IMG/VR virus record: IMGVR_UViG_3300045747_000156
Coordinates: 1-62,611 of that record
Strand: one strand, 5' to 3'
DNA from: a virus
DNA: 62,611 bases
Shown here: positions 1,636 to 51,967 of the stretch, in pieces
Layout: every line of letters begins with the position of its first letter
How positions within the stretch are numbered: position 1 is the first letter of the stretch
Program-made: the position numbers and the translations under genes
Notes under the pieces: model-generated
Databases searched by the model: none
What the model saw: the letters and a program-made list of their open reading frames with translations, nothing else
Told to the model about the DNA's origin: nothing

Positions 1636-1841
1636 GCAGCTTGAGGATTGACTTCGATCAACCAGAATTTACCGTGGCGCAGAAGGTGCTACTCCGAGAA
1701 CTTGCCGATCATCATGAACGGTACGAAGCGCTAGGACGTGACCTCGAAGCGCGTGGTGTCTACAAGTCCATTGTCACCGCATACCGCTTCTGGAAAGGCG
1801 GATTTGTGGATACTGAACCAACTAATTGGGGATCGCTATGA
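1632..1841 (+). CDS. Hypothetical protein (soluble, lysis-cassette embedded)
   Basis: ATG at 1632 overlaps the upstream TGA (ATGA). Open frame of 69 aa. Confidence 0.55.
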   Translation: MSSLRIDFDQPEFTVAQKVLLRELADHHERYEALGRDLEARGVYKSIVTAYRFWKGGFVDTEPTNWGSL

Positions 1842-2149
1842 CCAAATCTCAAATTGAACTTATTTTCCTGACTGTAGCCGCAACGTTGTTTGTGGCGATG
1901 ATTTTACGTTGGCATCTATCAAAAGACTCCAATTTAGATCTTCAATACCTGTTCATTGATACAGAGACAAAGATGTTCTCTATCTTCAAGTTTGGTCAGG
2001 TGGTGGCTCTGTTTGTCAGCACATGGGTGCTGATCCGCGAGACAAGCCACGACCGCCTTGGAGAGTGGCTATTCACCGCCTACATGCTTGCTTGGGGTGG
2101 TGCAAACATTGCCAACCGCATCATCAGCAAACCTTCGGAGCCTAAATGA
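1838..2149 (+). CDS. Multi-pass membrane protein (holin-like, about 3 TM)
   Basis: ATGA overlap at 1838. Hydrophobic segments IELIFLTVAATLFVAMIL, FGQVVALFVSTWVLI and WLFTAYMLAWGGANI. Confidence 0.55.
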   Translation: MTKSQIELIFLTVAATLFVAMILRWHLSKDSNLDLQYLFIDTETKMFSIFKFGQVVALFVSTWVLIRETSHDRLGEWLFTAYMLAWGGANIANRIISKPSEPK

Positions 2150-2493
2150 ACCAATACCTCATCATAGCTGCGCTCCTTGCCATCATGGGCGCGGGGGCTG
2201 GGGGCTTCAAACTTGGCGTTGACCACGAGAAGGCAGGTCAAGTATCTAAGCAGGAGGCCGTGGCCGAAGCTGTCGATGCCGCCAACAACGTGTGGGCAGA
2301 CAAGGTGGCAAGTCTTAAGCCAACGTATACAACAATACAAAATAAGGTGCAACATGAAGTCGAAACTCACACTGTCTACACTGATTGCAAGTTGTCTCCT
2401 GACGGCCTGCTCTTGGCCAATCAAGCCCTCGCCGGTGGAGCCAAGCCCGTTGATCAAAGCAAATTGCCCTCTCCTGACGCCGCTGGAAAGTGA
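2146..2493 (+). CDS. i-spanin (Rz-like)
   Basis: N-terminal TM LIIAALLAIMGAGAGGF followed by a periplasmic helical domain. ATGA overlap with the upstream gene. An o-spanin is embedded or overlapping in the +1 frame. Confidence 0.75.
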   Translation: MNQYLIIAALLAIMGAGAGGFKLGVDHEKAGQVSKQEAVAEAVDAANNVWADKVASLKPTYTTIQNKVQHEVETHTVYTDCKLSPDGLLLANQALAGGAKPVDQSKLPSPDAAGK

Positions 2494-2575
2494 TACGTTT
2501 GGGTCTGTGGTGTCAAAGCTTACAGAGGTCTCAGGCATTTACTACACGTGCAGAGCGTCTGCCGGAGTAAAATAG
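2354..2575 (+). CDS. o-spanin (Rz1-like outer-membrane lipoprotein), overlapping the i-spanin
   Basis: Internal Met of track ORF 2177..2575. MKSKLTLSTLIASCLLTAC carries lipobox LLTAC; the mature part is Pro-rich. Overlaps the 3' half of the i-spanin gene and extends beyond it. Confidence 0.75.
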   Translation: MKSKLTLSTLIASCLLTACSWPIKPSPVEPSPLIKANCPLLTPLESDTFGSVVSKLTEVSGIYYTCRASAGVK

Positions 2576-2594
2576 CCACACAACGGAGGCTACT

Positions 2595-3236
2595 ATGTCT
2601 GCTACCATCACCTACTCAGTCCTGCTAGATCAGATACCAGGATATTGCGAGCGCTCATCAGATACCAGGCTCATAGATCAGCTGCCAACTCTGATCATGT
2701 TGGCGGAGAACCGCTTGGCAACAGACATGAAGCAGCAGGGCTTCCAATCTGTTGTCAGTGGCACGTTCACAGTCGGCGCGGCTGGTGCTGTCATCGCTAA
2801 GCCAGCGTTCTGGCGCGAGACCATCAGCTTTAACTTCAAAGACCCTACGGTAGGTTGGTTGCCTATGCGGTTGAGGGCACTTGAGTACCTTAAGAACTTC
2901 TGGCCTCTGCAATCAGCCACTCAGCCACCGCGCTTTTACGCCGACTACAATTTCACAAATTTCTTGGTGGCGCCTTCACCAGACCAAGCCTACGACTTTG
3001 AGCTGGCTTACTACGCACGTTTGGATCCCCTGGGTCCTGACAACCAAACCAACTGGCTCACTGTGAATGCTCCACAGTGCCTACTGTATGCATGCCTTCT
3101 AGAAGCTCAGTTGTGGTTGAAGAACGAGGCCAAGGCCGCATTCTGGAAAGCCCAGTACGATGATCAAAAGGGTGGTCTCATGCAAGAAACTGCTGAGCGC
3201 TTGGGCGATCGCAGCGAAGTTGTGACGAGGGGCTAA
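2595..3236 (+). CDS. Virion structural protein (possible adaptor / tail tubular A-like, by position only)
   Basis: 213 aa with RBS ggaggctact before the ATG. Followed with a 1-nt gap by a 656-aa protein, like the gp11/gp12 pair of podoviruses. No motif-level support. Confidence 0.4.
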   Translation: MSATITYSVLLDQIPGYCERSSDTRLIDQLPTLIMLAENRLATDMKQQGFQSVVSGTFTVGAAGAVIAKPAFWRETISFNFKDPTVGWLPMRLRALEYLKNFWPLQSATQPPRFYADYNFTNFLVAPSPDQAYDFELAYYARLDPLGPDNQTNWLTVNAPQCLLYACLLEAQLWLKNEAKAAFWKAQYDDQKGGLMQETAERLGDRSEVVTRG

Positions 3237-3237
3237 G

Positions 3238-5208
3238 ATGCCAGATCCTATATTCACGCTGAAGTCTCAACCAGGCGTTCGTCGAGACGGCACTGAGCTT
3301 GACTCCCCGTTTTATTCTAATGTTGTGTGGACTAGGTTCCAGCGCCAGAAACCACGTAAAATTGGTGGGTACTCACGCCTGTCTGGCCAGTTGAATGCCC
3401 CGATCAGGTCTGTGTTTGTAGACGCCCGCAACGGTCTTACAACAGCGCACTACTTTGGTAAGTGGGGTGTTCAACGTCAGCTGCTATCAGACCTTTCTGC
3501 AACAGGCTTGGTTGATCGTACTCCGGTGGATTTTGTAGTCAACGACAACTATACGTGGTCTCACTCCACCATGTACTCCTCAACCGGAGGTGCCTACGCC
3601 GCTATTATTGCAGCATCAACACCAGACCTTTTGGACATCACAAATGACGTAGGTGGCAATGTTTATTCTGGAGACGTTTCTGGAACTGCTCCTCTATCCA
3701 AAGTCAGCGATGGCTCCGGACCCATCTTGACATCCGGCGGTGTGTGCGTACTGCAACCGTTTCTAGTTGTGTACGGCAGCAACGGTCTCATCAGCAACTC
3801 CAATGCAAATGACTTCTCAGCAGGTTCTGGCTGGACTACCGGCACAGGGTACGCAAACAGTGCAAATCCAGCAGGCACAAAAATTGTGTACGGGGCTCCG
3901 ATCCGTGGCGGTGGTCAGTCTCCCGCCGGGCTGTTCTGGGCTTTAGACTCCGTAATCAGGATGTCTTTTGTTGGCGGAACTCGCTTGTTTAGCTACGACA
4001 CATTGTCAAACCCTACATCCATCATGGGTAAGAAGACTGTGGTGGAACATGATGGCAAATTCTTCTGGATTGGCACCGACCGCTTCCTGTTTTACAACGG
4101 TATTGTGCAGGAACTTCCCAACCAAATGAACTGCAATGATTTCTTTGAAAACCTGAATTACGCCCACCGCAATAAGGTTTGGGGAACGTGCGTTGCAAGG
4201 TTTGGAGAAATCTGGTGGTTCTACCCTCGTGGCTCAGATACTGAGTGCCACGATGCCATCATCTTTAATTATGCTGAAAACACGTGGTATGAGGCCAAAT
4301 CAAGTCGCAGCGCCGGGCACACGGTCCAGCTGTATCCAAAACCAGTTTGGGTTGGAGATGAGGACTCTCAGTCTACCATCGCGATCCCAGTAGGATTCTC
4401 TACGCCGACAGTGATTGACAGCGGTGCTACTGATAACAAGTTAACATTTGCATCCACAACGTCTCCAGACACCTTTGTCATCGGATACACGGTCAGCGGC
4501 CATCCTAACATTCCACCAAACTGTGTCATCACGTCTTTGACTGGGACTCAAGCGTTTATCTCCCCGAGCACTACTGGCGTTGTTCCAAGCGGTACGTACG
4601 TAACTCTTAGTGCGACAACAACTGGGTTTGTCACCGGTCAAGTTCTCACTGGAGCGTTCTCAGGAGCGAACGGGACTGTTGTAAGGGCCACCGAGAAATC
4701 CATAAACCTGGTCGATGTCAGCGGAGCATTTGTCCCATTTGAAACTCTGACAGGCGGTTCAGGTGCATCGTCCAGAGCCTTAGCCGCAACCTACTCACAG
4801 ACTTTGTCAGGTGTTTATGCTCATGAGACTGGATGGGACAAAGTGGTTGGCCAAGACGTGACAGCCATACCAGCTAGCTTCAAGACATGCAATTTCGGTT
4901 TAGCAGTCGGCGGACCTTTTGACGATGCGCCACAAACCATTGACACGATGACAAGGTTGGTGAACCTCGAGCCAGATCTTGGCCAAATCGGTGACTTGAC
5001 GATGCGCGTCTATGGCAAGAGCTACGCCGCCCAACCGTATAAAGTGTTGTCCACAGACATTGTTACACCTGACACCGTGTTTGTGGCGCCTAGGGTTCAA
5101 GAGCGAATTCTCCAGATTGAATTCGAGTCGAATACCGTGGGTGGATTCTTTCAGCTTGGACAGACGCTGGTAGAGATTGAACCAGGCGATGAGCGTGGGA
5201 ACACGTAA
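3238..5208 (+). CDS. Large virion structural protein (possible nozzle / tail tubular B-like)
   Basis: 656-aa uninterrupted ORF in the late arm, tightly packed with its neighbours. Function inferred from size and position only. Confidence 0.4.
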   Translation: MPDPIFTLKSQPGVRRDGTELDSPFYSNVVWTRFQRQKPRKIGGYSRLSGQLNAPIRSVFVDARNGLTTAHYFGKWGVQRQLLSDLSATGLVDRTPVDFVVNDNYTWSHSTMYSSTGGAYAAIIAASTPDLLDITNDVGGNVYSGDVSGTAPLSKVSDGSGPILTSGGVCVLQPFLVVYGSNGLISNSNANDFSAGSGWTTGTGYANSANPAGTKIVYGAPIRGGGQSPAGLFWALDSVIRMSFVGGTRLFSYDTLSNPTSIMGKKTVVEHDGKFFWIGTDRFLFYNGIVQELPNQMNCNDFFENLNYAHRNKVWGTCVARFGEIWWFYPRGSDTECHDAIIFNYAENTWYEAKSSRSAGHTVQLYPKPVWVGDEDSQSTIAIPVGFSTPTVIDSGATDNKLTFASTTSPDTFVIGYTVSGHPNIPPNCVITSLTGTQAFISPSTTGVVPSGTYVTLSATTTGFVTGQVLTGAFSGANGTVVRATEKSINLVDVSGAFVPFETLTGGSGASSRALAATYSQTLSGVYAHETGWDKVVGQDVTAIPASFKTCNFGLAVGGPFDDAPQTIDTMTRLVNLEPDLGQIGDLTMRVYGKSYAAQPYKVLSTDIVTPDTVFVAPRVQERILQIEFESNTVGGFFQLGQTLVEIEPGDERGNT

Positions 5209-7390: not shown

Positions 7391-8944
7391 ATGGCAGATG
7401 ATACAGGCGCATTAGGTTCAGCATTTGACGCACCGGGCGGAAAGTCCGTTGCTAGGTCCTTGGCATTCGGTCCTGGATCTATGCAGGGAGATTTGTCTGG
7501 CGTGCTCTCTCAGCTAGTAGACCCAGAGCGCTCGCGCCAAACTGAGAACAAAGCCTTTTGGGCTGGGATGACAGCTCCGAGCATGGGTCCAGGCTTCTCC
7601 ACCGGAAACGCGATGGCTGCTGAGGTGGCTGCTCGTGAGAATCAGGACAAGCTGCGTGCAGCTTACATCCCGATGATCATGCAGTCGATCACGGCCCAAC
7701 GTGCCAACGAGCTTGGCTATGCGAAGTTCGCTCAGGATCGTATGGAGAAGACCACTCCTCTGATCAACTCTGCCCTCTACGGCATGCAGGCAGACGGCAA
7801 GACGCCGTCTATTCAAGAGGCTCATAAGCGTATCGACGATGTCGGCGCCATGTTTGGCATGGGACAGCAAGAGATGTTCCCACATCATATGGCTTTGCAT
7901 CGTGGCGCTGGTGAAGACGGTTCTAAGATCGGTGACTATCTGCAACAGTTGCGAGTCTCCGCCGCTCCTGCAGAGGCTGGCGTCACCAAGTTCAACACCA
8001 ACGCTGCCGGTCAGATCACCCCAACCAATGCCGTCACAGGTACGGTTGGAACAGAAGGTCAAGGCGGACACGGTGCAAACCCTACCAAGACATCGGTTGA
8101 GATCGACAAAATGTACCGCCAAGATCCTGGCAAGTACACTGATGACCTCACTGGAGCTGTTTCGTCTTACAATGATATTCTGCAGCGCGGCAATGCAATC
8201 CAATCTAGCTTGAACACGTTCAACCCTGGTAAGTATGCTGCCAACATTGGCGGAGTTGCTGCTGCCACTAAGGACTTGGCAACTCGCTTCCCCAACGTTG
8301 CTACCAAGACTATAAATGACTATGTGACAAGTCTGATGGGATCCAAAGGTGATAAGGCTGATGCAAATCCTCAGGCAGCTTTGCAGTTTGCTGAGAGCTT
8401 GAAGACACAGGAAACTCTGGCTCAGCTGAAGTCGTCGCTTGAAGGTCAGGGCCGCATCGGCCAACAGGAGTTCACTGCATTGAATCGCGCCATGTTGAGC
8501 TCGGCATCTGACCCGGCTGCGTTCCAGAAGTTCATGGACTTCACGCGTGGTCGCGCAGCCAGCGTCACTAACAAACTAAAGGCTTGGGGTGATCACGCGG
8601 CTAAGCATGGTGACAATCTTTCCGTGCCAGCATTTGAGATCCCATGGCAAGTCAACGAGTCTACTCAGCTGATTGGTGGCGGCGGCAAGGACCCACGTTA
8701 CGGTCAGACAGACGTTCCTGCAGGAACCAAGAACCAGGCTGTTCCAAATCCTGCTCAACCCACCGCAGTGACTCCACCGGCGCCACAACCAGCCGCTCAG
8801 CCGGCGCCCGCAAAGCCTCAGGTCAGGCTTGAGGATTACGAGAAGGGCACGCGCGTTGGTCCCACCGGCGTTCCATACGTGATCGAGAACGGCGTGCCAC
8901 GTCCTGCTAAACGCCGTGGTGTCAGCGGTCAAATTACACAATAG
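7391..8944 (+). CDS. Putative internal virion protein with Pro-rich C-terminus
   Basis: Start chosen at MADDTGALGS (ATG 7391, after the upstream stop) rather than the track start 7358. C-terminus PAQPTAVTPPAPQPAAQPAPAKPQ. Confidence 0.45.
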   Translation: MADDTGALGSAFDAPGGKSVARSLAFGPGSMQGDLSGVLSQLVDPERSRQTENKAFWAGMTAPSMGPGFSTGNAMAAEVAARENQDKLRAAYIPMIMQSITAQRANELGYAKFAQDRMEKTTPLINSALYGMQADGKTPSIQEAHKRIDDVGAMFGMGQQEMFPHHMALHRGAGEDGSKIGDYLQQLRVSAAPAEAGVTKFNTNAAGQITPTNAVTGTVGTEGQGGHGANPTKTSVEIDKMYRQDPGKYTDDLTGAVSSYNDILQRGNAIQSSLNTFNPGKYAANIGGVAAATKDLATRFPNVATKTINDYVTSLMGSKGDKADANPQAALQFAESLKTQETLAQLKSSLEGQGRIGQQEFTALNRAMLSSASDPAAFQKFMDFTRGRAASVTNKLKAWGDHAAKHGDNLSVPAFEIPWQVNESTQLIGGGGKDPRYGQTDVPAGTKNQAVPNPAQPTAVTPPAPQPAAQPAPAKPQVRLEDYEKGTRVGPTGVPYVIENGVPRPAKRRGVSGQITQ

Positions 8945-11273: not shown

Positions 11274-12457
11274 GCAAGACCACTTTATTCAAGAATTTAG
11301 CCGGTGCTTTGTCACGGGCCTATGAAGATGTCGGCAGCAAGTGGGGCGGCAACCACGAAGTGCTATTTGACCGCCTAGGCTCCTTCTACAAAGGGCTGAC
11401 ACATGACCCTGAGTACTTTGCTACTAGCAAGGTGGTCCCTCAATCTGGTGATGACGTGCGCATCATGCGCGAACTTGAGCGGAAGCACGGACTTGGACAG
11501 GGAGATCTCCGCCTAGAATATGATGGTGGTTTACTACATCGACCATCAGGAGCCTCCATAGGAAACACTGGAGAGACACCGAACGAGATCAGATCCTACA
11601 TCTCAAAGAACGCACCTCCACCGTGGGGATACCTATCCCGCGAAGAGAAGCTGAAGTTCTCAGAAGCCGGTCGCTTAAACCCGGAATTGCCATTCTGGGA
11701 AATGGACATGATGGGAGCAGACAAAGGTTCAGGCACCGCTAAAACGCTGTATCCATTGTTTACTGATTGGATCATGGCCCATCCAGGAACCGGTGCGCGC
11801 ACTGTAGGCTTAACTGAGGCCAATGCTCAAAAGCGTGGCGTGTATCAGGCACAGGCTCTTGAGAAGTACGGTCCCGCGATGCTCAATAGAATCCAGAATG
11901 ATGCGGCTCAGCTGGACAACAGCTGGGGAACATCTGGCAACCACGCGACCATGCTTGGGATGGATACTCAGGGTCAGATAGGGGCCTACAATGCTCTTCT
12001 AGCTCAGCGCACCAATGAGAAACTACGTGACCTTCTGAAGCTGGGTAAGGAAGAGCACGGTACGTTGGACTTCAGCAAGGCCATGGAAGCCGAGATGCCA
12101 GAAGACATGCGATCGATGAATGAAAACTCTTTGCTGCGCCATGAGCTTTTAACCAAAGCCTTAGGCCGAGCTAGAATGTTTGGGCTTGACAAGCCGTCGG
12201 TCAACATGGATTTCCCGGCCGCTCAATCTATCATCAACGATCTGTCCAAGGGAATCTCCCAACCCATACCAGTGGGCCAGGATTCTCTGCGCCGTGCTGC
12301 TATCACTAACAGCTACGTGCAGGATCCTGGATTAGACATGGGAGACCTCATGGGAACTCCAATAGTCAAAGCACTTGCTCGCGCTAAAGGAGGTTCCGTG
12401 ACGACTCACCATACACACGCCGGGCCGTTGACACAGTGCTCGTGTGGAGCAAAATAG
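11270..12457 (+). CDS. Hypothetical late protein (last gene of the plus arm; ARAKGGSV motif near the C-terminus)
   Basis: 395 aa. ATGA overlap with the upstream gene. The 3' end overlaps the convergent minus-strand gene by 74 nt. Confidence 0.5.
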   Translation: MSKTTLFKNLAGALSRAYEDVGSKWGGNHEVLFDRLGSFYKGLTHDPEYFATSKVVPQSGDDVRIMRELERKHGLGQGDLRLEYDGGLLHRPSGASIGNTGETPNEIRSYISKNAPPPWGYLSREEKLKFSEAGRLNPELPFWEMDMMGADKGSGTAKTLYPLFTDWIMAHPGTGARTVGLTEANAQKRGVYQAQALEKYGPAMLNRIQNDAAQLDNSWGTSGNHATMLGMDTQGQIGAYNALLAQRTNEKLRDLLKLGKEEHGTLDFSKAMEAEMPEDMRSMNENSLLRHELLTKALGRARMFGLDKPSVNMDFPAAQSIINDLSKGISQPIPVGQDSLRRAAITNSYVQDPGLDMGDLMGTPIVKALARAKGGSVTTHHTHAGPLTQCSCGAK

Positions 12458-13265
12458 TCTTGGTCCCGTTGTAGCCTCCGGCTAGGTTGAAGACGCAAGG
12501 TACTTCGTTGTCGAAGCAGTATTTGAAGATGATCTCATCACGGTACTTCCACTCGTCATCGTTAAGATACCCGGCCATGTACGGGTCATCCTCATGTGAA
12601 TCGGCGCCTGCTTGATAGAGCACCGCGTCCCACTGCTTAAGACCTAGAGCGTGGCGCAGAGCGGCGAAAGACTTTCCTGCGTCACCTCCTGTAGATCCTT
12701 TGTCAAGCGAGCACTGATGCAGCCAATCGCGCCCACCTATTGTGATAAGGTCATCAGTACCGTCACCCCAGTGGCCATCGCCGTCAATGATAAGGACATT
12801 GGCACCGATAATCTTTTTGCGGACGGCGTCAGCAGCTAGTACTAGTCCATTAAAAGTGCAATAACCACCACCGTAAGCATACCCAGAATGATGGAATCCT
12901 GATACTGGAGCAAACACTGGGCTTGGGATACCTGCGTGAGCTGCTGCCAATGCTGTAATAGCCGCGTCGCGCATGATGACGCATGAGTGAGCTGAGTGGT
13001 CGTTGACCTTCGGATTGTCGATTCCATAACCATTGGGCTTAGTCCCGAGAAACACGTCGTGAACATAGCTTGAATCATGGATCTCCATCAGGTCTAAAAT
13101 TGCTTGATCTTCAGCGTATTTGGACGTCAGGATGATGTCCGATACAATATTGCGTGTGACATCGAAGACGGCCTTACCTTTTGATAAGTTAGGCGCGCCT
13201 TCGACTGGTGATGGTGGGTTATAAATGATCATGCATTGATTATAATGCACTTCCATCCGCTGCAA
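12384..13265 (-). CDS. HDAC / AcuC / acetylpolyamine-amidohydrolase family Zn-dependent deacetylase
   Basis: All family signatures occur in order: SGFHHSG (His-His), GYCTFNG, IIDGDGHWGDGT (Asp/His Zn ligands), YQAGADSHEDDP (Asp ligand), LAGGYN (catalytic Tyr). The start may be the internal Met at 13232 (MIIYNPP). Confidence 0.75.
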   Translation of the reverse strand: MQRMEVHYNQCMIIYNPPSPVEGAPNLSKGKAVFDVTRNIVSDIILTSKYAEDQAILDLMEIHDSSYVHDVFLGTKPNGYGIDNPKVNDHSAHSCVIMRDAAITALAAAHAGIPSPVFAPVSGFHHSGYAYGGGYCTFNGLVLAADAVRKKIIGANVLIIDGDGHWGDGTDDLITIGGRDWLHQCSLDKGSTGGDAGKSFAALRHALGLKQWDAVLYQAGADSHEDDPYMAGYLNDDEWKYRDEIIFKYCFDNEVPCVFNLAGGYNGTKTILLHTSTVSTARRVYGESSRNLL

Positions 13266-13734
13266 ATGTGTATTTGAAATCCAATTTCATCCACTTGCGG
13301 CCTGAGCTCTCCCACAGAGCCCTGGCTTCGGAGTGAGGATATTCCTCTAAGAACATGATCGTTTGGCACGATGTGTTCAGCAGCAGTTTAGTACACGTCA
13401 TGCAAGGGCTTGCTGTCACGTACGCGGTGTCTATGGAATAGACGTCTTTACACTGAAGCAGAGCATTCTGCTCGGCGTGTATCGATTGGCACCCGTCAAG
13501 GTTCGCACCACTAGGAGAGTGAGCCCCGGAGCAGGCGTGCGGAAACCCTATTGGATGAAACATGTCATGATGGTTGCAGTGAGGCTGCCCAGAAGCGACC
13601 CCATTGTAGCCGGTAGCAAGCACGTGGCCGCGACCGTTTACCAACACTGCACCAACCTTGCGGCGGATGCAGGTGGCGCGCTGGGCTGTCACCACCGCCA
13701 TGGCCATTGCCCATGAGTGGCGATCAGGCCGCAT
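13240..13734 (-). CDS. dCMP (deoxycytidylate) deaminase
   Basis: HAEQNAL and PCMTCTKLL zinc motifs. N-terminus RHSWAMAMAVVTAQRATCIRRKVGAVLV is typical of ComEB/dCMP deaminases. Start chosen at Met 13734. Confidence 0.85.
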   Translation of the reverse strand: MRPDRHSWAMAMAVVTAQRATCIRRKVGAVLVNGRGHVLATGYNGVASGQPHCNHHDMFHPIGFPHACSGAHSPSGANLDGCQSIHAEQNALLQCKDVYSIDTAYVTASPCMTCTKLLLNTSCQTIMFLEEYPHSEARALWESSGRKWMKLDFKYTFAADGSAL

Positions 13735-14539
13735 CCGTAGCTCCAACACCGGTTGCTTCCCACCACCGATACGCGTCACCAGGACTGGATTCACGTAGGA
13801 GTTTAAGACGCCTCATCAAGGCTTCCTCGTCGGTATAGAGGTGACTAGGAGTCAATGCTATGCGAGGCATGAGCCGGCCATCGGTCTCACTCAGTAGGGT
13901 CTTGGCCTCTTTCCAATTCTTGTCATACAGATGGCAAGAAGCCGCGGTCAAGAACAATGTTCCTGGTTGCACTGCCCGCTCATGCTTCTGCAAAAGGCGT
14001 GCACAGATCAAGTGGGCCAGCATGCTGAAGTTAAACACGTCGTACGGAAGACCGAGCCAAACGTCAGACGAACGCATGAACACGTGCATGTTCAGCTTGC
14101 CATCACGCATCGACGCGAAGATCGACACGGTGCACGGCACGTCCTTTGTCTGAGGTGGATTCTCACGCCAAATTGTCAATCCAGCCTGGCGAGTATCTGG
14201 ATCTTCGTGCAACTTTCGCACCACGTAGTCCAGTTGCCCGATAACCTTTGGGCCGTAGGCGCCAAAGAACGTCGTGCCGTCGTCACTGAAGTTGGCGATA
14301 TGCTTGTTCCAAGGACTGATGCCCGCAACGGTGTCGTCACCGCTGAGAATCCAGTAGGCTTCAGCTGCCAAGAACCGGTAACTGAGTTTGCGCTCGCGGA
14401 TAGTCAAGACTGGGTGCCTCATGTCCACAATGGTCGTGTGTTGAGGTACCTCCAGGGTGTCGTGGTTTCGCGGACTCACCAACGTCCCATGCATGAACAA
14501 CTCAGACAGCGTATTCAACCAAGCTATATTCATGTTCAT
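13724..14539 (-). CDS. Thymidylate-synthase-family pyrimidine C5 transferase; Asp at the base-specificity position predicts dCMP hydroxymethylase or dCMP methylase
   Basis: Gapless match from the catalytic Cys: VPCTVSIFASMRDGKLNMHVFMRSSDVWLGLPYD versus E. coli ThyA [34 protein letters not shown]. Cys136 codon at 14132-14134; Asp167 codon GAC at 14039-14041, where ThyA has Asn177 and T4 gp42 has Asp179. Confidence 0.75.
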   Translation of the reverse strand: MNMNIAWLNTLSELFMHGTLVSPRNHDTLEVPQHTTIVDMRHPVLTIRERKLSYRFLAAEAYWILSGDDTVAGISPWNKHIANFSDDGTTFFGAYGPKVIGQLDYVVRKLHEDPDTRQAGLTIWRENPPQTKDVPCTVSIFASMRDGKLNMHVFMRSSDVWLGLPYDVFNFSMLAHLICARLLQKHERAVQPGTLFLTAASCHLYDKNWKEAKTLLSETDGRLMPRIALTPSHLYTDEEALMRRLKLLRESSPGDAYRWWEATGVGATDAA

Positions 14540-14913
14540 GCTTTGCTCCTTGTATCCGCCAAGAAGAAGCCTGCGTAGTTGATGATGTCCAACGCGGTAT
14601 CGTTCAGCCCTTCGAAGTTGACGTCCTTGCCCTCAGCAACCTTGCGGGTGATCGACACAAAGCGCTCAGACTTCGTATGGAGCATTTGAGCATAGCTCAC
14701 TGCACCAAATGGGAAGTAGCCTGTGCGGTCAATCGTGTGCAGGTTCTGAGACGCACCATGGTTGTAATCGGCAGACTTCTTTGCGCACAGCAGAGCCGCG
14801 TCAGCGAGAGCGCCTGGATGGCCACCACGAATCGAGAGCTCTTGGAGCATCTCGACAGTGGAAAGCCTAGATGCGGCGGTCGGTGCCGCCACTATAGATT
14901 TAGGCGTGGCCAT
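14536..14913 (-). CDS. DUF1599-like (nucleotide-modification-associated, all-alpha) protein
   Basis: Pattern KSADYNHGAS...GAVSYAQMLHTKSERFVSI...LNDTALDIINYAGFF resembles DUF1599 as I recall it. ATGA/TAATG coupling to both neighbours. Confidence 0.5.
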   Translation of the reverse strand: MATPKSIVAAPTAASRLSTVEMLQELSIRGGHPGALADAALLCAKKSADYNHGASQNLHTIDRTGYFPFGAVSYAQMLHTKSERFVSITRKVAEGKDVNFEGLNDTALDIINYAGFFLADTRSKA

Positions 14914-15344
14914 TATTGATCCTTGCAGTGAGCGTTCAGGATTTCATCGGTCTTGGGACCGACCCAGCCCGGAGGCTTAGCGACATCAATGCCGATGTTG
15001 CGGTGCGTACGACCGACAACCTTTGCCATGTTGGCTCGCTGCACATCCATCCAAAGCTCTTCCCATGGGAGGCCCATTTCGATGGCCGTTCCTTTGGCAA
15101 CGTAGACCAGATCAATGAGGGCATCAGCCATCAGAGCGGCATTGTGGCGTTGGAGACCGACTTTGAATTCGTCGAGCTCTTCCTGCATGAAGCGTACGCG
15201 CTCATATCCACGGTCGACAGTGCAAAACATTGCCGATGGGCGTTGGCCCACTGGTTGCTTGAACTTCTCGTAGAAGGCGCGTACGTCTTCCATCTCGTCA
15301 TAGACGAATTTACGTTTGATGAATGAGATGATTGCTTTGATCAT
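14913..15344 (-). CDS. MazG/HisE-like all-alpha NTP pyrophosphohydrolase (candidate dCTPase/dUTPase)
   Basis: EELDEFKVGLQRHNAALMADALIDLVYVAKGTAIEMG fits the EExxE...D..DL.Y metal-binding helices. Start at 15344 overlaps the upstream TGA (ATGA). Confidence 0.65.
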   Translation of the reverse strand: MIKAIISFIKRKFVYDEMEDVRAFYEKFKQPVGQRPSAMFCTVDRGYERVRFMQEELDEFKVGLQRHNAALMADALIDLVYVAKGTAIEMGLPWEELWMDVQRANMAKVVGRTHRNIGIDVAKPPGWVGPKTDEILNAHCKDQ

Positions 15345-16105
15345 GCTGGTTTCCGGCAAATCCACAGGTTGTTACGGGCTTCGTCTGGGTATAGAGGAGC
15401 AAAGATGCAGGAAATCGCATCATTGTCGTAGTACTCAGACAAAGCCTTTTTGACTTCTGCAATGGCTGATTTGTTGGCGCGGTCAGTCTCAGCTTTACCA
15501 ATGTGTTTGATGTCCATGAAGACACCGTAACGCTTCTCAATTTTGAAGCCGGCCTTTTCCGTCGCTTTTTGCAACTCAGGAATTTCATACTCATGGATGT
15601 GGTTTGCGGCATGGCGCACGCCGTCATAGCACGGAGTGGACATCAACATAATGCCGCCTGGTTTCAGAGACGCAAAGCAAGCCTTCAACATCTTTGCACC
15701 GTGCTCTACGCGCATGTGCTCGATCACTTCGTAGTGAACAACAATGTCAAAGCCGCCGGCGTTGTCGCCCTTGAGAAGTTCCTTGTAGCGCTCAACAAAG
15801 TTGAACTCGCCATGGAACTGGAGCTTGGCCGCAGCAGACGGCTTCAGCTTGTTGAGGTCAACACCGGTGTAGTGCAACACATGAGGCGCAGCACCACCGG
15901 TCAGGATCTTGCTCAACGGTTTGTCTTCACCGCAACCGATTTCAAGGACGCGGTCCTTAGTGGTAATGAAGCGGCGGGCAAAGCTCCAGCGAAAAAAGTG
16001 ACCTGAGTAGTCGCGGCCCAAAGTCTTTCCGTGACCGTTGGCGTGGAGTTGGGTCGTGTCGTAGTCGCGATCGTCGCGGTTCTTTTCTTTACGAGTAGTA
16101 GCCAT
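15341..16105 (-). CDS. Class I SAM-dependent methyltransferase (not a recognisable DNA MTase)
   Basis: Motif I VLEIGCGEDKPL, post-I YTGVDLN, FDIVVHYEVIEHM, LKPGGIMLMSTP. No DPPY/NPPY or PCQ motif. Confidence 0.75.
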   Translation of the reverse strand: MATTRKEKNRDDRDYDTTQLHANGHGKTLGRDYSGHFFRWSFARRFITTKDRVLEIGCGEDKPLSKILTGGAAPHVLHYTGVDLNKLKPSAAAKLQFHGEFNFVERYKELLKGDNAGGFDIVVHYEVIEHMRVEHGAKMLKACFASLKPGGIMLMSTPCYDGVRHAANHIHEYEIPELQKATEKAGFKIEKRYGVFMDIKHIGKAETDRANKSAIAEVKKALSEYYDNDAISCIFAPLYPDEARNNLWICRKPA

Positions 16106-16156
16106 GATGTTCTTGGATCCTCAGCAAATTGGTTGACGAAACAGGCTTACGCCCAA

Positions 16157-16762
16157 TTACTTGGCGCCTTTGACGGCCTTGGCAGCAGGAGGGTTCGCGC
16201 CCTTCTTGGTCAAGTCGTTGCGGTACCATGCCACGTAGCTGAACTTTTTGTCGTCCAGACCGTGAGCAGCTTGCACCTTTTCAAAGATCTTCTGATCAGA
16301 CAGATTGCCAGCCATGATGAGGTCTTTGAACATTTGAGCGGCAGACGGACCTTTCTTTTCAGCTTTGGCAGGCTTTTCGGCCGCGACCTTTGGGGTCTTG
16401 ACCGCCTTTGCCGGCTTTTCAGCTGGGACGTCTTTGGTTGCTTTTTCCACTTTGGCAGTGGACGCCTTTTTGGCTGTAGCCATTTCTATTTCCTTTTGGG
16501 ACAGTTTAGTAAGGCGGCCAAGTGCTTCCATGGCCTCCGGTGATGCCCCGACAGTCCGTGCATACTGAGCGTACAGCTGAGCACAACGTTCCACCGGGTA
16601 ATCGTCAAGCGGTTGGTACAGCTCAACGAATGCTTTACTGGGCATGTGTTCGATATTGAAACCGTTCTCAATGCTCAGGGGAATGAATTCTACAGTGGAA
16701 CCGCCACTTAGCGCTAGGCACGTGCGTCGTTGGCGGTCTGCACAAACAGATGGATATGACAT
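16157..16762 (-). CDS. Lys/Ala/Pro-rich (histone H1-like) protein with C-terminal WYRxxLxKKG domain
   Basis: Strong RBS ctgaggatcattaaATG. Central AKKASTAKVEKATKDVPAEKPAKAVKTPKVAAEKPAKAEKK. The C-terminal domain is paralogous to that of 31067..31516. Confidence 0.6.
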   Translation of the reverse strand: MSYPSVCADRQRRTCLALSGGSTVEFIPLSIENGFNIEHMPSKAFVELYQPLDDYPVERCAQLYAQYARTVGASPEAMEALGRLTKLSQKEIEMATAKKASTAKVEKATKDVPAEKPAKAVKTPKVAAEKPAKAEKKGPSAAQMFKDLIMAGNLSDQKIFEKVQAAHGLDDKKFSYVAWYRNDLTKKGANPPAAKAVKGAK

Positions 16763-16814
16763 TTAATGATCCTCAGCAGTTTCGATGATGTATTGTATCA
16801 TGATCATTATGTGA

Positions 16815-18224
16815 TTATGATTTTTGGCGGCGTGATTTTGCAAGTTGCTTGAGCCCATCAAATAACGCATTCTGTGTTTTGCCCTTAGCAGTCAAGCTAT
16901 TCCACACATATAGGTCCACAGTGTTGTCGCACAAAAGAACGTGTACGATGACGCGTTTGCTCTTGTTGCCCTGCCTGAGGACGCGTCTGATGAACTGGTC
17001 GTAGACCTCACCGTCCCACGTTAGAGTAAACCAAGCCACGTTGTGCCCAGCTTCTTGGAGGTTCAAACCGTGGCTAAGACTCTGCGCCTGCGCAAACAAA
17101 ACTGGGATTACACCACTGTTCCACTTGTCTTCCAACTTCTTGAAGTCCTTGGCAGCATAGTCGCCAGCAAAGACCGCGGTTGGGAATGCTTTGCGCAGGC
17201 GCTCAGCTTCGTGGCTGAACTCGTACGCCACCAGCAGCGGAGACCCTTGCAGCTCCTCGATGATCACTTCCAGTGCCTCTATCTTCTCGGTGTGCAATTC
17301 TGCCCACTCGCGCTTGGTCTTTGATGGCTTGAACAGACCTTCAACCTCAGGTGTCAAGAACACAGCCCCCGAAGCCATCTGACGGCATTTGCCCATGGCC
17401 ACACCGCTGTTCTTGGCAACAACGGACCCCTGCTCGATCTCGGCTACGAGGTCATCCTCAACGCTGAGATAAGCTGCTAGAGCGGCGTCTGGCATCTTGA
17501 CCCTGACGATGTTCTCTATCAACTGAGGCATTTCTAGATAGTCTTCTGCCGCCATACGCAGGACCAGCGGGTTCAGCTTCTTGTAGATGAGGTCCTCGGA
17601 TCCTGGCTTTATATCCCACCCAAATCCGTTGTAGGCCTGTGTGAAGTAAGTTTTCTGGTAGTGGGTAATATACTGGCCAAGCGCATTGCCCTGGTCTAGC
17701 ATGTACATCTGTCCAAACAATTGCAGAAGGCCGTTGGCGGCTGGTGACCCCGTCAAACCCCAGCGGCGACGGAATGTATTGATGACCTGCTTCATGGCCT
17801 TGAACCTATCAGACTGATGGTTCTTGAATGCAGTCAGCTCATCAATGACCAGAGTACCAAACCCTAGTTTTTTGAACCGCTTCAGGTCAACTGAGACGGC
17901 GTTCTTGCCTGTCCGCGGTGACTTGACTTTGGTGACTCCTAGCAGCCATTCAAGTCCACCTGGATTGATGACGTAGATGTCAGCTTCCTGCTCCAGCAGC
18001 TTATCCTTGTGGGGACCGTGCAGAACCACGATACGCAAGCCTGCAAAATCCAACCACTTAGCAGCTTCGCCTGGCCATGTTGCATGGGCAACACGCAGTG
18101 GCGCAACAATCAAGACCTTGTCTTCTTTGCCGGCCTTTAGTAGCAGTTTTATAGCGGCTAATGTTATAGAGGTTTTTCCTAAACCTTCACTAACCAGGGT
18201 CGAGAAATAACCCGGCTGAACCAT
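16815..18224 (-). CDS. SNF2-family helicase, main body (motif I onward); N-terminus lies in another frame
   Basis: LVSEGLGKTS (motif I), VIDELTAFKN (motif II), SLSHGLNLQ (V), QFIRRVLRQGN (VI). The Q-motif region is encoded by 18190..18312 in a different frame. Confidence 0.8.
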   Translation of the reverse strand: MVQPGYFSTLVSEGLGKTSITLAAIKLLLKAGKEDKVLIVAPLRVAHATWPGEAAKWLDFAGLRIVVLHGPHKDKLLEQEADIYVINPGGLEWLLGVTKVKSPRTGKNAVSVDLKRFKKLGFGTLVIDELTAFKNHQSDRFKAMKQVINTFRRRWGLTGSPAANGLLQLFGQMYMLDQGNALGQYITHYQKTYFTQAYNGFGWDIKPGSEDLIYKKLNPLVLRMAAEDYLEMPQLIENIVRVKMPDAALAAYLSVEDDLVAEIEQGSVVAKNSGVAMGKCRQMASGAVFLTPEVEGLFKPSKTKREWAELHTEKIEALEVIIEELQGSPLLVAYEFSHEAERLRKAFPTAVFAGDYAAKDFKKLEDKWNSGVIPVLFAQAQSLSHGLNLQEAGHNVAWFTLTWDGEVYDQFIRRVLRQGNKSKRVIVHVLLCDNTVDLYVWNSLTAKGKTQNALFDGLKQLAKSRRQKS

Positions 18225-18313: not shown

Positions 18314-18826
18314 TTATTTCCTTGACAGAAGAACGCCAGCAGAAATTTTTGCTTTTGCTTCTTCAGTATGATGTTTACCAAACATTGGATGTTTGGTTCC
18401 AGTTCTTCCATAGCCTGGCGCGTCTTCTTTGGCCCTGCCGTACATAGGGTTTCCCTTTCCTGACACTCGTTGACTCATCCTCTCCCGTTTTTCAGGAGTC
18501 CATACAGATTTCCAAATCCCCTTCATAGAGGCGTCTAGCTGATTCTCTTTATTTGTTCCCAACCATAAATGATCAGGATTGATGCAACCCTTATTATCAC
18601 ACGTGTGGCAGACAAAAAGCCCGGTTGGGACTTTCCCTACGTGCAATTGGTATGACGCTATGTTAGCTCTTCTATGGTACGAAGCCCGTTGTAAATGCCT
18701 TGACAGCATTCCATATCCGTTCCAGGATACACTGCCAGACCACATCCAGCAACCACCCACAACTTCGTAGTTTGTCAAAAGTTGAAATACCAAGAAGTCG
18801 TTGATGTCATCCTGTGTTCTAGCCAT
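18314..18826 (-). CDS. Free-standing HNH homing endonuclease with NUMOD3-like repeats
   Basis: [28 protein letters not shown] (HNH_3-type) plus GKGNPMYGR and [20 protein letters not shown] (NUMOD3-like). Confidence 0.8.
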
Positions 18827-31066: not shown

Positions 31067-31516
31067 TTAGACTGCGTGACCTTTACGACGCAGCTCGCAA
31101 CGGTACCAGCTGCCGTAGTGCTTTTGGTTCTCGCCCAAAGTGCCTGCGCCCTTAGGACCAAGCGTATCCCACACTTGTTGGTTGGTGAAACCGTCGAGAA
31201 TCATCTCGCGAATCAGAGCAGACACAGACTGGCCTTTTTCTGTCTTTGGTTTGGCAACTGGAGCAACCTTCACAGAGCCATCAGCTTGAACTTGAGCTTT
31301 GAGCTTTGGTGCAGGCACTTGAGTGAGCGTCATGTTGGCCACAGCTTTTTCAGCTTGCTTGTAGACGAAGGACTTAGCACCTTCGATGTCACAGTAGAAA
31401 ACGCCATCACGCTTGATGATGAAGTCGTCGTAGTCAGCTTTGACGATACCGATTTTGCGCAGAGCAGAAGTAGCAGAGTCGCGAGCGGCGTATTTGGTGG
31501 CGTTAGACATGTTCAT
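31067..31516 (-). CDS. Lys/Ala/Pro-linker protein with C-terminal WYRxxLxRKG domain (paralog of the 16157..16762 C-terminus)
   Basis: Start MNMSNATKY at 31516 (RBS ctgaggatcaaatc). Linker APKLKAQVQADGSVKVAPVAKPKTEK. C-terminus SVSALIREMILDGFTNQQVW...YGSWYRCELRRKG. Confidence 0.55.
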   Translation of the reverse strand: MNMSNATKYAARDSATSALRKIGIVKADYDDFIIKRDGVFYCDIEGAKSFVYKQAEKAVANMTLTQVPAPKLKAQVQADGSVKVAPVAKPKTEKGQSVSALIREMILDGFTNQQVWDTLGPKGAGTLGENQKHYGSWYRCELRRKGHAV

Positions 31517-31577
31517 GATTTGATCCTCAGACTTGGTTAAGTGGTTAGCACATTCAGGACTGTTTGTGCATAGATGT

Positions 31578-31620
31578 ATTGTACTGTGGCTAGGTGGCGT
31601 TGTAAACAACTATTTGCAAT
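31578..31620 (-). promoter_or_regulatory. Sigma70-type early promoter P5
   Basis: Minus strand TTGCAAATAGTTGTTTACA-N17-TACAAT. -35 at 31601-31606, -10 at 31578-31583. Confidence 0.7.
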
Positions 31621-38782: not shown

Positions 38783-41700
38783 ATGGATAAGCGCAACACA
38801 AAGATGCTCCCACGGGCCGAGCACAACGAACTCACTCAGCAGTATCCGAAGCTCAGTGGCTTCTTGCAGGCTGCTCTGCTTGGTGACGCCCCTGACGAAC
38901 TTGGCGGCTCAGTGCTCGATCCGCTGACTGCTGACCGCCAGACTGGAGCACGCGCAGGCTACCCGCTTGGACTTGCTGCCCAAGTGGCTCCCGTGCTTGG
39001 TCCATTGACTAAGTGGGCAGCCTCTGGGTCTGCTGGTGCAAAGCTCGCAGATGCTGTGGGCGAAGTTGGAAAGAGCTACGTGGTGAAGAACAAAGGCGGC
39101 AACTGGGTTGGCGGCCAGGTCGAAGACACACTGAAGCAGCTGAAGCGAGCCGTACGTGATGACGACTACTTGGCAAGGCTAGCAAGAGATGAGCAGCGTG
39201 GTATCATGATGCCAGGCACCCATCAGGAAATTCTTCGCCAAAATGGCGAGGCTAGTGCGCTCAACAACTGGGTTGACAAGCAGCTCACTCGCTACGTCAA
39301 GAACGACATGGCAACGCCTGAAGACCCTATCCGTGCAATGGCTGAGCGTGGGCCAATCCACACCGACCCCGGTCTCGACCTCTACTCGTCAAGGCATCGT
39401 GAACATCGTAACTCTGCCGGCACGGGCCTTGAAGGACTTGGCCAATCAAGGATTGCCAAAGACTGGGAGAACGTAACTGACGGTGCTATCGTGCCGCAGA
39501 CAATTGACGACCTGTGGCCTCAGTTTCCAGAGCTTAAGGCCCAGAATCCATGGATGGAGACGGCTCCTGCCGATACCAAAATCAACTGGGCTAGCGATGG
39601 GGTCCGCACACGCTTAGGCTTTGACCACTTACTTGATGAGTTGCGCAACGCGACCAATCCAGCCTCAGGTCTGCCAGCTCACTTGCAGTGGGATCCAAAG
39701 AACATGGACCGGGTGTCTGTACCTCAAGCTGTGCAGCGTGTTGCTGACATCAACGCTTGGAGAGCTGAGCAGAAAGCGGCTGCTGATGCTGCAAGGGCCA
39801 ACAACGCAGCCACAACGCTTCACAAGGACTACCCAGACCAAGGCTACAAATGGGTACAACTAAAGAAGCCCCAAGCTTCTGCCACTGATACGCTGCCAGA
39901 TGGATACAAACTTGACCAGAACAAAAACGGATTCTTTGTACGTGGTCCTGACAACAAAATGGCCAAGTCAATCTGGAACACACCAGAAGAGGCTGTGTCA
40001 GAGATGCTCGACGCGTCAAACACCTCTAAGCTATCTGACGCTCTCAAGTACGAGGGCGACACTATGGGCCACTGTGTTGGCGGTTACTGCCCAGACGTTA
40101 CATCTGGCCGCAGCAACATCTACAGCCTCCGCAACTCAAAGACCGGTGAGCCTCACATCACGGTTGAGACTCGACCAAGCAAGGTAAGCCGCGAGTACCT
40201 CAACTCTCTTCCAGACCCTGACAATCCTGGCGGCCCTGACTCATTTGGCGTAGCAAACACAATGTATGACTACGTTCATCGCCATCGCAAGGGAAACGGC
40301 GACTTTGACAACTTTGCACTTCAAGCACTGAAGCAGCACGGTCACGACTTGCCTCCTGAAGAGGTCGTGCAGATCAAAGGCAAGGGCAATGCTGCACCTG
40401 CTGACAAATACAAGCCATTTGCTCAGGACTTTGTCAAGTCCGGTAAGTGGGCGCGCGTCGGAGACCTCAGCAACACAGGCTTGGTTGAAGCGCAAGGAAA
40501 ATACTGGACACCGCAGGAACTCAGTGATGCAGTAGGCCCAGTCCCGACACCGCCAGAATACGCAGAAGGAGGCCGTGTGAGCCCAACAGATGGTATCCCA
40601 TACCCGGGAATTGGTAAACGACGCCACAACGATCGTCAAGCAAGTGCCGACATACCGGTACAAGCACTTCGCGGTTGGGCTGCGGGCACGGCCGGACTCC
40701 CCGGAGACCTCGAGGGACTAGTCAGGAGCTTAATTCCTGGTGTCAGCAACACCTCGTTCTGGCCTACGAGTGATTTCTACAAGGAATGGCTCCCCGGCGC
40801 GTCTGAGACCCCTCAGGCGAGGGCTGCCCAAGAGCTAGGGAGCTTCTTCGGAGGAGCTGGCTCCACAAAACTGGCTAAACCGATTGCCTCCACAGGCAAA
40901 GCGGCTGCAAGGTTCGCTGGTGAAGCCATCGATGCTGGCATGCACGGGGAAGGAGCATTGGCTAGGGTCTTAGCGCCTGCAGCTCCGGCCTTTGCCGTGA
41001 AGCCTAAGGGCGGCAATTGGACCGTCGCAAGCGGCCATGCCCCTGAAGACGCCTTGGAATTCCACGACATAGCTGCTCGCAACTCGTCTGAGGCCAACCG
41101 CTGGCGCGACAAGCAGTTGTTGAACTACATGAAGAACCAGATGGGGACAGTTGACGACCCACTACTGAAGCTCGAGCAAGAAGGCCGTCTGCACATGACA
41201 CCTCAGCAGATGATAGAGTCGTCGCGGGAGTTTGGGGTGGCTCCACACCCGCTTCGTGGAACTGAGGAGTTTGGGTTGAGAACTGGTTTAGGTACTGCCG
41301 ATAAGTTCCACTACGAGACTACGGGTAGGTCAACAAGAACGCCGTGGGAGAATCTCTCTGACCAAGCAATCGGCACTCATACGCCAGGCGAAGAAGTCAA
41401 CAACCTTCTGGATTATCACGGCGTCACTGACGGCCCCAACACAATCGGCGAAGGCGTTGAGCACTTGACAAACCAAGGTGGGATCTCAGCGCAGGCGGCA
41501 GAGCTCTTGAAGCGACACTCTTGGCTTGACAAGGCAGATCCAAAAACACCAATCTACGGACTGGGTGAACCACAAGGCCTCGGCTTCCAGCACATGATGG
41601 ACTACCTGGACCAAGCCAACGGGGCAGGTCAAGCTCTTGAGCATCACGGATCCTTAGAGGCCATGCGAGCCGCTGCTCAAGGAGCCGTTCAAAATGCTCC

Positions 41701-51490: not shown

Positions 51491-51967
51491 ATGAGCTTTG
51501 CAGACTCCCTTGAAATCACCGATCAATTGCCAGGTGTAAACCCCTATTCCACAGGGTTTGAAGCCGAAGGCACCATGGAAGAATTCTTCCCTGACGGTAT
51601 TGACCCAGGATTTACCCCGTTTGGCAGCCGTGTCGTGGTGCAGCTGCGCCGCGTCAAGAACGCAACCAAGAGCGGCATCATCCTGTCCACCTCCACCAAA
51701 GAGACCGAAGCCTGGAATACACAGGTTGCTCGTCTTGTCAAGGTCGGTCCTCTGGCATTCAAGAAGCGCGATAGCGGCGAAGAATGGCCTGAAGGCATCT
51801 GGGCAAAAATCGGAGACTTCGTTCGAGTACCTCGCTGGGGTGGTGATCGCTGGTCTGTGAAAGCAGACGACAAACTGTCTGACGTTGTGTTCCTCACGTT
51901 AAACGATCATGAGCTCATCGGTCGTGTTGACGGCGATCCCCTGAAAGTGCGTGCGTATGTTCTTTAA
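51491..51967 (+). CDS. GroES (Cpn10)-like co-chaperonin with ~45-aa N-terminal extension
   Basis: FTPFGSRVVVQLRRVKNATKSGIILSTSTKETEAWNTQVARLVKVG...AKIGDFVRVPRWGG...FLTLNDHELIGRVD aligns with GroES [42 protein letters not shown]...VKVGDIVIF...LIMSESDILAIVE. Confidence 0.65.
   Translation: MSFADSLEITDQLPGVNPYSTGFEAEGTMEEFFPDGIDPGFTPFGSRVVVQLRRVKNATKSGIILSTSTKETEAWNTQVARLVKVGPLAFKKRDSGEEWPEGIWAKIGDFVRVPRWGGDRWSVKADDKLSDVVFLTLNDHELIGRVDGDPLKVRAYVL

Follow-up and report, generated by a model that had tools for sequence, protein, structure and literature searches.

A viral genome from IMG/VR (record IMGVR_UViG_3300045747_000156, positions 1 to 62,611, analysed over its whole length of 62,611 nucleotides (nt) and called the window here) encodes on its minus strand a ThyA-family protein of 271 amino acids (aa). 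On the balance of our analysis, this protein is very probably a deoxycytidylate (dCMP)-specific member of the thymidylate synthase (TS) superfamily and most likely a 5-hydroxymethyl-dCMP (5hm-dCMP) synthase. A sequence-only reading of the same DNA had predicted an enzyme acting on dCMP, either as a hydroxymethylase or as a methylase, and not making deoxythymidylate (dTMP). Sequence, structure prediction, gene context and literature support the dCMP assignment, and the choice of product that the reading left open can be sharpened: a hydroxymethylase is favoured, short of proof. The gene, whose start codon shares bases with the stop codon of the gene before it (ATGA), and its informative residues are as follows.

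13724–14539, minus strand: ThyA-family enzyme, 271 aa, predicted dCMP C5-hydroxymethylase (5hm-dCMP synthase), from Pfam PF00303 and an AlphaFold2 model
14132–14134, minus strand: codon TGC of the catalytic Cys136, equivalent to E. coli C146 and T4 C148, by direct reading; invariant in clade alignments
14039–14041, minus strand: codon GAC of Asp167, equivalent to E. coli Asn177 and T4 Asp179, the cytosine-specificity residue, by direct reading and alignments
14141–14143, minus strand: codon GAC of Asp133, three residues before the Cys, equivalent to E. coli Leu143 and T4 Asp145, the hydroxymethylase water activator, by alignments
14186–14191, minus strand: codons CGC CAG of Arg117-Gln118, equivalent to E. 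coli R126-R127, with Gln replacing the second phosphate-binding Arg, by direct reading and alignment

The protein matches PF00303 at 2.5e-24 (86 bits against a cut-off of 24.3), and no NCBIfam thymidylate synthase model comes near its cut-off (the best reaching 61.3 bits against 327). Its AlphaFold2 model is of high confidence (predicted local distance difference test 94.4, predicted template modelling (TM) score 0.92). When this model was compared with the PDB using Foldseek, the top matches were seven chains of MilA, the cytidine monophosphate (CMP) 5-hydroxymethylase of mildiomycin biosynthesis (E about 1e-18, TM 0.71–0.78, with 0.75–0.78 for the best of them), followed by ThyA structures (E about 1e-15, TM 0.62–0.70). 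MilA was also the top PDB match by sequence (HMMER, 1.2e-16). Identity to the window protein is 33% for MilA, 28–30% for Xp12 and PaMx74 (30% for Xp12), about 27% for T4 gp42 (a partial alignment of 135 residues) and 22% for E. coli ThyA.

Asp versus Asn at position 177 (E. coli numbering) sets cytosine specificity, as established by the mutagenesis of Hardy & Nalivaika, Liu & Santi and Graves et al. (cited in PMC8670742 and PMC13326640); MilA, BcmA and T4 dCMP hydroxymethylase have Asp, and TS and the SPO1 deoxyuridylate (dUMP) hydroxymethylase have Asn (PMC5175136). Using E. coli ThyA from NC_000913 and T4 gp42 from NC_000866 as references, we recovered the gapless 33-residue alignment to E. 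coli ThyA that the sequence-only reading had described: its strings match the real sequences, with 14 of 33 residues identical, and an Asp does lie 31 residues past the Cys (C146-N177 in E. coli, C148-D179 in T4 gp42, C136-D167 in the window). A profile alignment could have moved the Asn177 column, but none did; PF00303, HMMER, hhalign and MAFFT all place Asp167 there. The column was the same in hhalign comparisons of a 47-sequence clade profile with E. coli ThyA (probability 98.6) and T4 gp42 (probability 95.7), and in HMMER alignments to the PDB chains of MilA and M. tuberculosis ThyA. The equivalence to Asn177 is thus based on profile alignments together with the overall fold match.

Asp occupies column 177 in 119 of 119 homologues with 55–68% identity and in all 150 representatives clustered at 50% identity. 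It is no chance substitution but a constant feature of a large clade; the homologues of the protein amount to about 600 clusters at 50% identity (E<=1e-30). More distant phage homologues, such as Ab19 gp14 of a Pseudomonas phage and Send513 gp76 of a mycobacteriophage, have Asn at this column. Ab19 gp14 (L094, 2980–4026) combines Asp143 with Asn177 and resembles dUMP hydroxymethylases of the SPO1 gp29 type, Send513 gp76 (L096, 2971–3975) has Asp143/Asn169/Asn177 and could not be assigned to a class, and ORF44 of Enterococcus phage 9183 (L095, 2986–3819) shows every residue of the dCMP hydroxymethylase signature, its neighbours being a kinase and a gene of NDP-sugar pyrophosphorylase type; all three are annotated as thymidylate synthase. 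One clade member, P0147, is a ThyA homologue split by an intein with an HNH endonuclease. N-terminal extensions in P0143, P0155 and P0185 were considered as pathway partners and rejected, as they resemble GIY-YIG endonuclease fusions.

The remaining active-site positions were compared with those of characterized enzymes in E. coli numbering.

Columns: 126 127 143 146 147 165 168 169 177
Window protein: R Q D C T M S D D
T4 gp42: R R D C T M N D D
MilA: K R D C T M N D D
Xp12 and PaMx74, verified 5-methyl-dCMP synthases: R R N C P L S D D
RB69 gp48: R R E C T M Q N D
E. coli ThyA: R R L C H Q C D N

At positions 143, 147, 165, 169 and 177 the window protein is identical to both proven cytidylate hydroxymethylases, T4 gp42 and MilA, and across the same positions it is unlike the methylases, the hydroxylase and ThyA. 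Position 143 bears on the product: a bulky hydrophobic residue keeps water out and yields a methyl group, and Asp or Glu activates water and yields a hydroxymethyl group (PMC13326640, PMC6400193); the T4 D145N substitution abolishes 5hm-dCMP formation (PMC6400193). Thr137 and Met155 are as in T4 gp42 and MilA, where Xp12 and PaMx74 have Pro/Leu and ThyA has His/Gln. The change of Asp169 to Asn that marks flavin-dependent 5-hydroxy-dCMP synthases, present in all tested ones (PMC13326640), is absent, and the equivalent Asp159 is invariant in the close clade. Arg126 and Ser167 are deoxyribose-specific, with Lys/Ala variants giving the CMP preference of MilA (PMC5175136), and by alignment Arg117 and Ser157 of the window protein sit at these deoxyribose-preference positions. 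The TS-superfamily residues Cys, Glu58, Tyr94, Arg166, His207 and Tyr209 are all present and invariant in the clade. T4 dCMP hydroxymethylase lacks the tail that ThyA uses for recognition of tetrahydrofolate (THF) (PMC6400193); a ThyA-like C-terminal tail is kept in Xp12 and PaMx74 (…PEVIE), and in the window clade it is replaced by an unrelated C-terminus with an invariant RWW. Overall, the substrate is very probably dCMP rather than dUMP, and the group added is probably hydroxymethyl.

The window protein has DTRQ where ThyA has DSRR, and the loss of the second Arg pointed out by the sequence-only reading extends to 119 of 119 close homologues, all with Gln, and to most of the 150 representatives. 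Sequence comparison suggests that Arg127Gln is a marker of the clade, nearly universal there. It does not go with specificity for cytosine, since RR is retained in T4 gp42 and Xp12 and MilA reads KR. We also considered the substitution as a mark of a dCDP or dCTP substrate and set this aside, as a natural fusion of ThyA to MazG (see below) points to a monophosphate. In ThyA itself the second phosphate-binding Arg is reportedly dispensable, according to mutagenesis of L. casei R179 by the Santi laboratory.

The gene lies in a tight, overlapping minus-strand operon running from a 201-aa protein through a methyltransferase, MazG/PRA-PH, X125, ThyA and a deaminase to an HDAC-family gene.

16157–16762, minus strand: 201-aa Lys/Ala-rich protein at the upstream end of the cassette, found in 65 of 80 loci
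15341–16105, minus strand: class I S-adenosylmethionine (SAM)-dependent methyltransferase
14913–15365, minus strand: MazG/PRA-PH-type nucleoside triphosphate (NTP) pyrophosphohydrolase, predicted to convert dCTP to dCMP, start codon uncertain; Pfam PRA-PH 1.3e-13
14536–14913, minus strand: X125, a 125-aa homologue of the C-terminal half of the NTP pyrophosphatases from Xp12 and PaMx74
13240–13734, minus strand: dCMP deaminase-family protein; Pfam dCMP_cyt_deam_1 6.7e-19, PDB matches are dCMP deaminases
12384–13265, minus strand: HDAC-family (arginase/deacetylase fold) protein just downstream of the deaminase; Pfam Hist_deacetyl 4.6e-21

The probable ATG of the deaminase is at 13734, giving an 11-nt overlap with the end of the ThyA gene (its longest open reading frame (ORF) begins at 13794). 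A trio of ThyA, PRA-PH and dCMP deaminase is given as a hallmark of cytosine-modified metaviromic contigs in MetaGPA and the NEB 2024 preprint, and the window carries all three within about 3 kb, at 13240–15365. To assess conservation of the cassette, we surveyed 80 IMG/VR loci carrying the Asp177 ThyA clade. The deaminase follows ThyA in 77 of these, MazG lies upstream in 72 and 62 contain the methyltransferase. Immediately before ThyA comes either a P-loop kinase-like gene of about 320 aa (54/80) or X125 (118–125 aa; 25/80), and never both together (0/80). A natural ThyA-MazG fusion in one representative, P0121, ties dCTP hydrolysis to the ThyA reaction and therefore argues for a monophosphate substrate. 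The cassette order is common to Stenotrophomonas phage AXL3, Pseudoxanthomonas phage PW916, Manatee Spring virus and metagenomic contigs. A P-loop kinase-like ORF of about 310 aa lies unannotated between the pyrophosphatase and the ThyA homologue in PW916 (L002, about 2300–3300) and Manatee Spring virus MW202621 (L001, 6061–6980).

The HDAC-family gene is accessory and outside the conserved cassette, occurring in 3 of the 80 related loci (L015, L018 and L026). By eye this Zn deacetylase-family protein seems to keep its HH, D-x-H, D and GGY motifs; PHROGs gave no match to it, and such a protein is unusual in a phage nucleotide module. At the other end of the cassette, the 201-aa protein (16157–16762, minus strand) and a second protein at 31067–31609 (minus strand) share by eye a similar C-terminal segment, …W[Y]R..L.[KR]KG…, after Lys/Ala/Pro-rich linkers, and both may bind DNA.

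Phage AXL3 offers a view of the DNA itself. Its ThyA homologue is 54% identical to the window protein, with the same signature and the same cassette. Of 37 restriction enzymes, just 2 cut AXL3 DNA, both with A/T-only sites, and none of the 35 with G/C in their site did so. Reported resistance to restriction enzymes among phage DNAs is 82% for 5-hydroxymethylcytosine (5hmC), 90% for 5-methylcytosine (5mC) and 8% for SP8, which contains 5-hydroxymethyldeoxyuridine. The AXL3 pattern is that expected for cytosine replacement and would be the opposite of that for thymine replacement. AXL3 also encodes ThyX, and its ThyA homologue is therefore unneeded for dTMP synthesis. The Manatee Spring virus homologue (63% identical) carries the depositor's label 'pyrimidine hmase', and that of PW916 is labelled dUMP hydroxymethyltransferase despite Asp at 177; homologue annotations are computational only. 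Megablast of 12000–17000 against the phage collection gave zero matches, indicating that the window has no close cultured relative there at the DNA level.

We infer a nucleotide flow that would begin with MazG and X125 converting dCTP to dCMP, both removing the competing dCTP and supplying the substrate. Cys136 would attack C6 of dCMP, by analogy with T4 gp42 and MilA, Asp167 would hydrogen-bond and protonate N3/N4 of cytosine, and the one-carbon unit of 5,10-methylene-THF would move to C5. THF would then depart and water activated by Asp133 would add to the exocyclic methylene; hydride from the folate would not be transferred, such that the products would be 5hm-dCMP and THF, not dihydrofolate (DHF). 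Some of the dCMP would pass through the deaminase to dUMP, from which the host would make dTMP. Phosphorylation of 5hm-dCMP to the triphosphate would fall to a kinase of the host or to one of the phage that escaped recognition, and the phage PolA polymerase would incorporate the modified cytosine to give restriction-resistant DNA. The cassette would be co-transcribed and translationally coupled.

The SAM methyltransferase is tightly associated with the clade. When we fetched 80 IMG/VR loci by a search for the methyltransferase family, the Asp177 ThyA clade lay within 6 kb in 74 of 74 informative loci, the other 6 ending less than 640 nt past the gene. The methyltransferase is also the best conserved gene of the cassette, with a median identity of 71% versus 56% for ThyA. 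Its matches are to generic class I enzymes (SpnF, CmoM, cap N7-methyltransferase and UbiG), as judged by PDB sequence search, NCBIfam, and an AlphaFold2 model with Foldseek. Among the ThyA loci, 13 informative ones lack it. Six of these have an HtrL_YibB-like ORF after the deaminase (L074–L076 and L080–L082, about 7742–8920) and four have a weak pyridoxal phosphate (PLP)-enzyme-like ORF (L064, L066, L070 and L089, about 1750–5000), three of the four adding an SGNH-like ORF and an unknown ORF; one of the remainder has a C5 DNA methylase and two have nothing recognisable. A C5 cytosine DNA methylase occurs in seven loci overall (L024, L036, L060, L062, L067, L068 and L086), six of which also have the SAM methyltransferase. 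A slot occupied by one or another tailoring enzyme for a new base should produce such a pattern, and common descent could also give it. The methyltransferase, found only beside this ThyA clade in IMG/VR, is the one lead that looks new.

Several observations weigh against a 5-hydroxymethyl-dCMP synthase. The nearest characterized enzyme is only 33% identical, and the product assignment draws on a handful of signature residues. A Ser/Thr two residues before the catalytic Tyr (Ser94-x-Tyr96) belongs to the hydroxymethylase signature; the window protein has Gly93-Ala94-Tyr95, with Gly93 invariant, and the Xp12 methylase has Ser. A deoxynucleoside monophosphate kinase was not found in the window genome with a Walker-A regular expression or with tblastn using the kinase-like proteins of AXL3, Manatee Spring virus and L011, nor did scanning about 70 window ORFs with Pfam and PHROGs turn up a glycosyl- or carbamoyl-transferase needing a hydroxyl acceptor. 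The order of NTP pyrophosphatase, ThyA and deaminase is the same in Xp12 and PaMx74, and five of seven deaminase-linked Asp177 ThyA homologues made 5-methyl-dCMP in the NEB screen. These last two points favour an Xp12-type dCMP methylase, in which the folate gives a hydride, the genome carries 5mC and the deaminase is selective for 5mC, turning 5-methyl-dCTP into dTTP, so that no other thymidylate synthase would be needed in the genome. Asp167 is equally compatible with that enzyme, the hydroxymethylase Ser/Thr is missing, the pyrophosphatases of Xp12 and PaMx74 have a C-terminal domain to which X125 is homologous, and the window ORFs scanned include no second ThyA and no Pfam Thy1 match for ThyX (every RHRxxS motif match lay in a stop-interrupted frame). 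However, the window protein has Asp three residues before the Cys, not the Asn of Xp12 and PaMx74, it has Thr137/Met155 versus Pro/Leu, it lacks the ThyA-like tail, and in structure it matches MilA better than it matches any reductive methylase. The window deaminase is just 24–29% identical to those of Xp12 and PaMx74, and the additional ThyX of AXL3 is expected if its ThyA homologue and deaminase supply no dTMP through 5mC. All eight Pamexviruses (the Xp12 type, with 5mC) encode a dihydrofolate reductase (DHFR) beside the deaminase, yet no ORF scanned in the complete window genome matched DHFR in Pfam. A Pamexvirus DHFR fits a reductive methylase that produces DHF, and finding none here agrees with release of THF by a hydroxymethylase, although host FolA could substitute. 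Taken together, we regard the methylase as unlikely, though it is the main rival.

It is rather less likely, though conceivable, that 5hm-dCMP is an intermediate and that the SAM methyltransferase tailors its hydroxymethyl group or another position, at the nucleotide or DNA level, to give for example 5-methoxymethylcytosine. The linkage of the methyltransferase to the ThyA clade in every informative locus and its high conservation are consistent with tailoring, as are the other candidate tailoring enzymes (HtrL_YibB-like, or PLP-enzyme-like plus SGNH-like) in 10 of the 13 loci without it, and the failure of all 35 G/C-site enzymes on AXL3 DNA versus the 82% and 90% resistance of 5hmC and 5mC DNAs. 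Against this, the fold matches of the methyltransferase are generic and its UbiG sequence matches weak, synteny may reflect common descent of the phages, no such base is known, and the restriction argument is statistical and drawn from mixed enzyme panels. A flavin-dependent 5-hydroxy-dCMP synthase of the RB69 gp48 or DLP3 gp80 type, which uses O2 to place a hydroxyl directly on C5, shares the superfamily, Asp177, an acidic residue at 143, and Thr147/Met165 as in RB69 gp48; given the invariant Asp159 in place of the diagnostic Asn, and with neither arabinose/hexose nucleotide-sugar genes nor glycosyltransferases found in the window, this is very improbable. We consider a dUMP-directed enzyme, whether a canonical thymidylate synthase or a dUMP hydroxymethylase fed with dUMP by the deaminase, to be just as improbable. 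The neighbouring dCMP deaminase does make dUMP, and public labels name thymidylate synthase (JGI, and for AXL3 and HTVC200P) or dUMP hydroxymethylase (PW916); however, those labels are computational, TS and the SPO1 dUMP hydroxymethylase both have Asn where this protein has Asp, ThyA Leu143, His147, Gln165 and the C-terminal tail are all replaced, scores lie far under the NCBIfam cut-offs, and AXL3 DNA is cut at A/T-only sites alone.

The window is a circular assembly representing a complete phage genome of about 62.5 kb, as a k-mer overlap places the same 127 nt at 1–127 and 62485–62611. ARAGORN found no tRNA genes in it. Terminase, head, tail and lysis genes are on the plus strand, and the replication and nucleotide-metabolism block is on the minus strand. 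An HNH/NUMOD3 homing-endonuclease-like gene (18314–18826, minus strand) lies between the SNF2 helicase and exonuclease genes. On the plus strand, two large ORFs come after the terminase and an SGNH/GDSL-domain head-decoration-like protein, one of 1702 aa with a short PcfJ-like match (38783–43891) and one of 980 aa without a family match (43884–46826), and the structural genes have among them one for a Cpn10 (GroES)-like protein (51491–51967).

Phage ThyA homologues with Asp177, their link to modified cytosine and the residue rules are already established (T4 gp42, Xp12, MilA, MetaGPA 2021, NEB 2024 preprint, NAR 2026), and the class itself would not surprise a specialist; what is added here is a large, abundant and uncharacterised clade with a clear signature. 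The public names 'thymidylate synthase' and 'dUMP hydroxymethyltransferase' hide a probable replacement of cytosine in these phages. If our assignment is correct, such phages should withstand restriction enzymes and some defence systems, CRISPR among them, and it bears on the sequencing and cloning behaviour of phage DNA and on which phages, AXL3 for instance, are chosen for therapy. AXL3 is in culture, so that the base could be read directly from its DNA. The cassette is a possible route to novelty, through the methyltransferase and the kinase-like/MazG-related slot: if tailoring occurs, virion DNA would carry an undescribed cytosine hypermodification, and relatives without the methyltransferase would use alternative tailoring enzymes.

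Among known systems, the window protein resembles T4 gp42 (EC 2.1.2.8; PDB 1B5E/6A9A family) in its TS fold, the Cys/Asp spacing of 31, the Asp before the Cys, the Thr, the Met and Asp169, the Arg/Ser deoxyribose determinants, the lack of a ThyA tail, and a phage pathway with dCTPase and dCMP deaminase. Unlike T4 gp42, it has Gly two before the catalytic Tyr (Ser in T4), Gln at the second Arg and a C-terminal 'RWWE', and the glucosyltransferases and gp1-like kinase of T4 were not found in the window genome. MilA (PDB 5B6D/5JP9) has the same Asp/Asp/Thr/Met signature but prefers a ribonucleotide via Lys133 and Ala176, where the window protein has the deoxy-type Arg and Ser; MilA is an enzyme of bacterial secondary metabolism, whereas the window protein would be a phage DNA-precursor enzyme.

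Xp12 and PaMx74 share with the window Asp177, 'RSSD..GLPYD', flanking genes for a MazG-type pyrophosphatase and a deaminase-family protein, and a similar phage size and architecture; they differ in having Asn before the Cys, Pro/Leu, a ThyA-like tail and an adjoining DHFR, and in lacking the SAM methyltransferase. The MetaGPA class (Yang et al. 2021 eLife; NEB 2024 preprint), compared by description only, is similar in its N177D, its non-His residue at 147 and the co-location of PRA-PH, dCMP deaminase and PolA, and the available portions of those texts do not describe this clade, Arg127Gln, the linked methyltransferase or the alternation of kinase-like gene and X125. AXL3 gp27–gp32, PW916 and Manatee Spring virus MW202621 have ThyA homologues of 54–63% identity, an identical signature and the same cassette order (methyltransferase, MazG, ThyA, deaminase); these have a 320-aa P-loop kinase-like gene instead of X125, AXL3 adds ThyX, and the window adds an HDAC-like gene.

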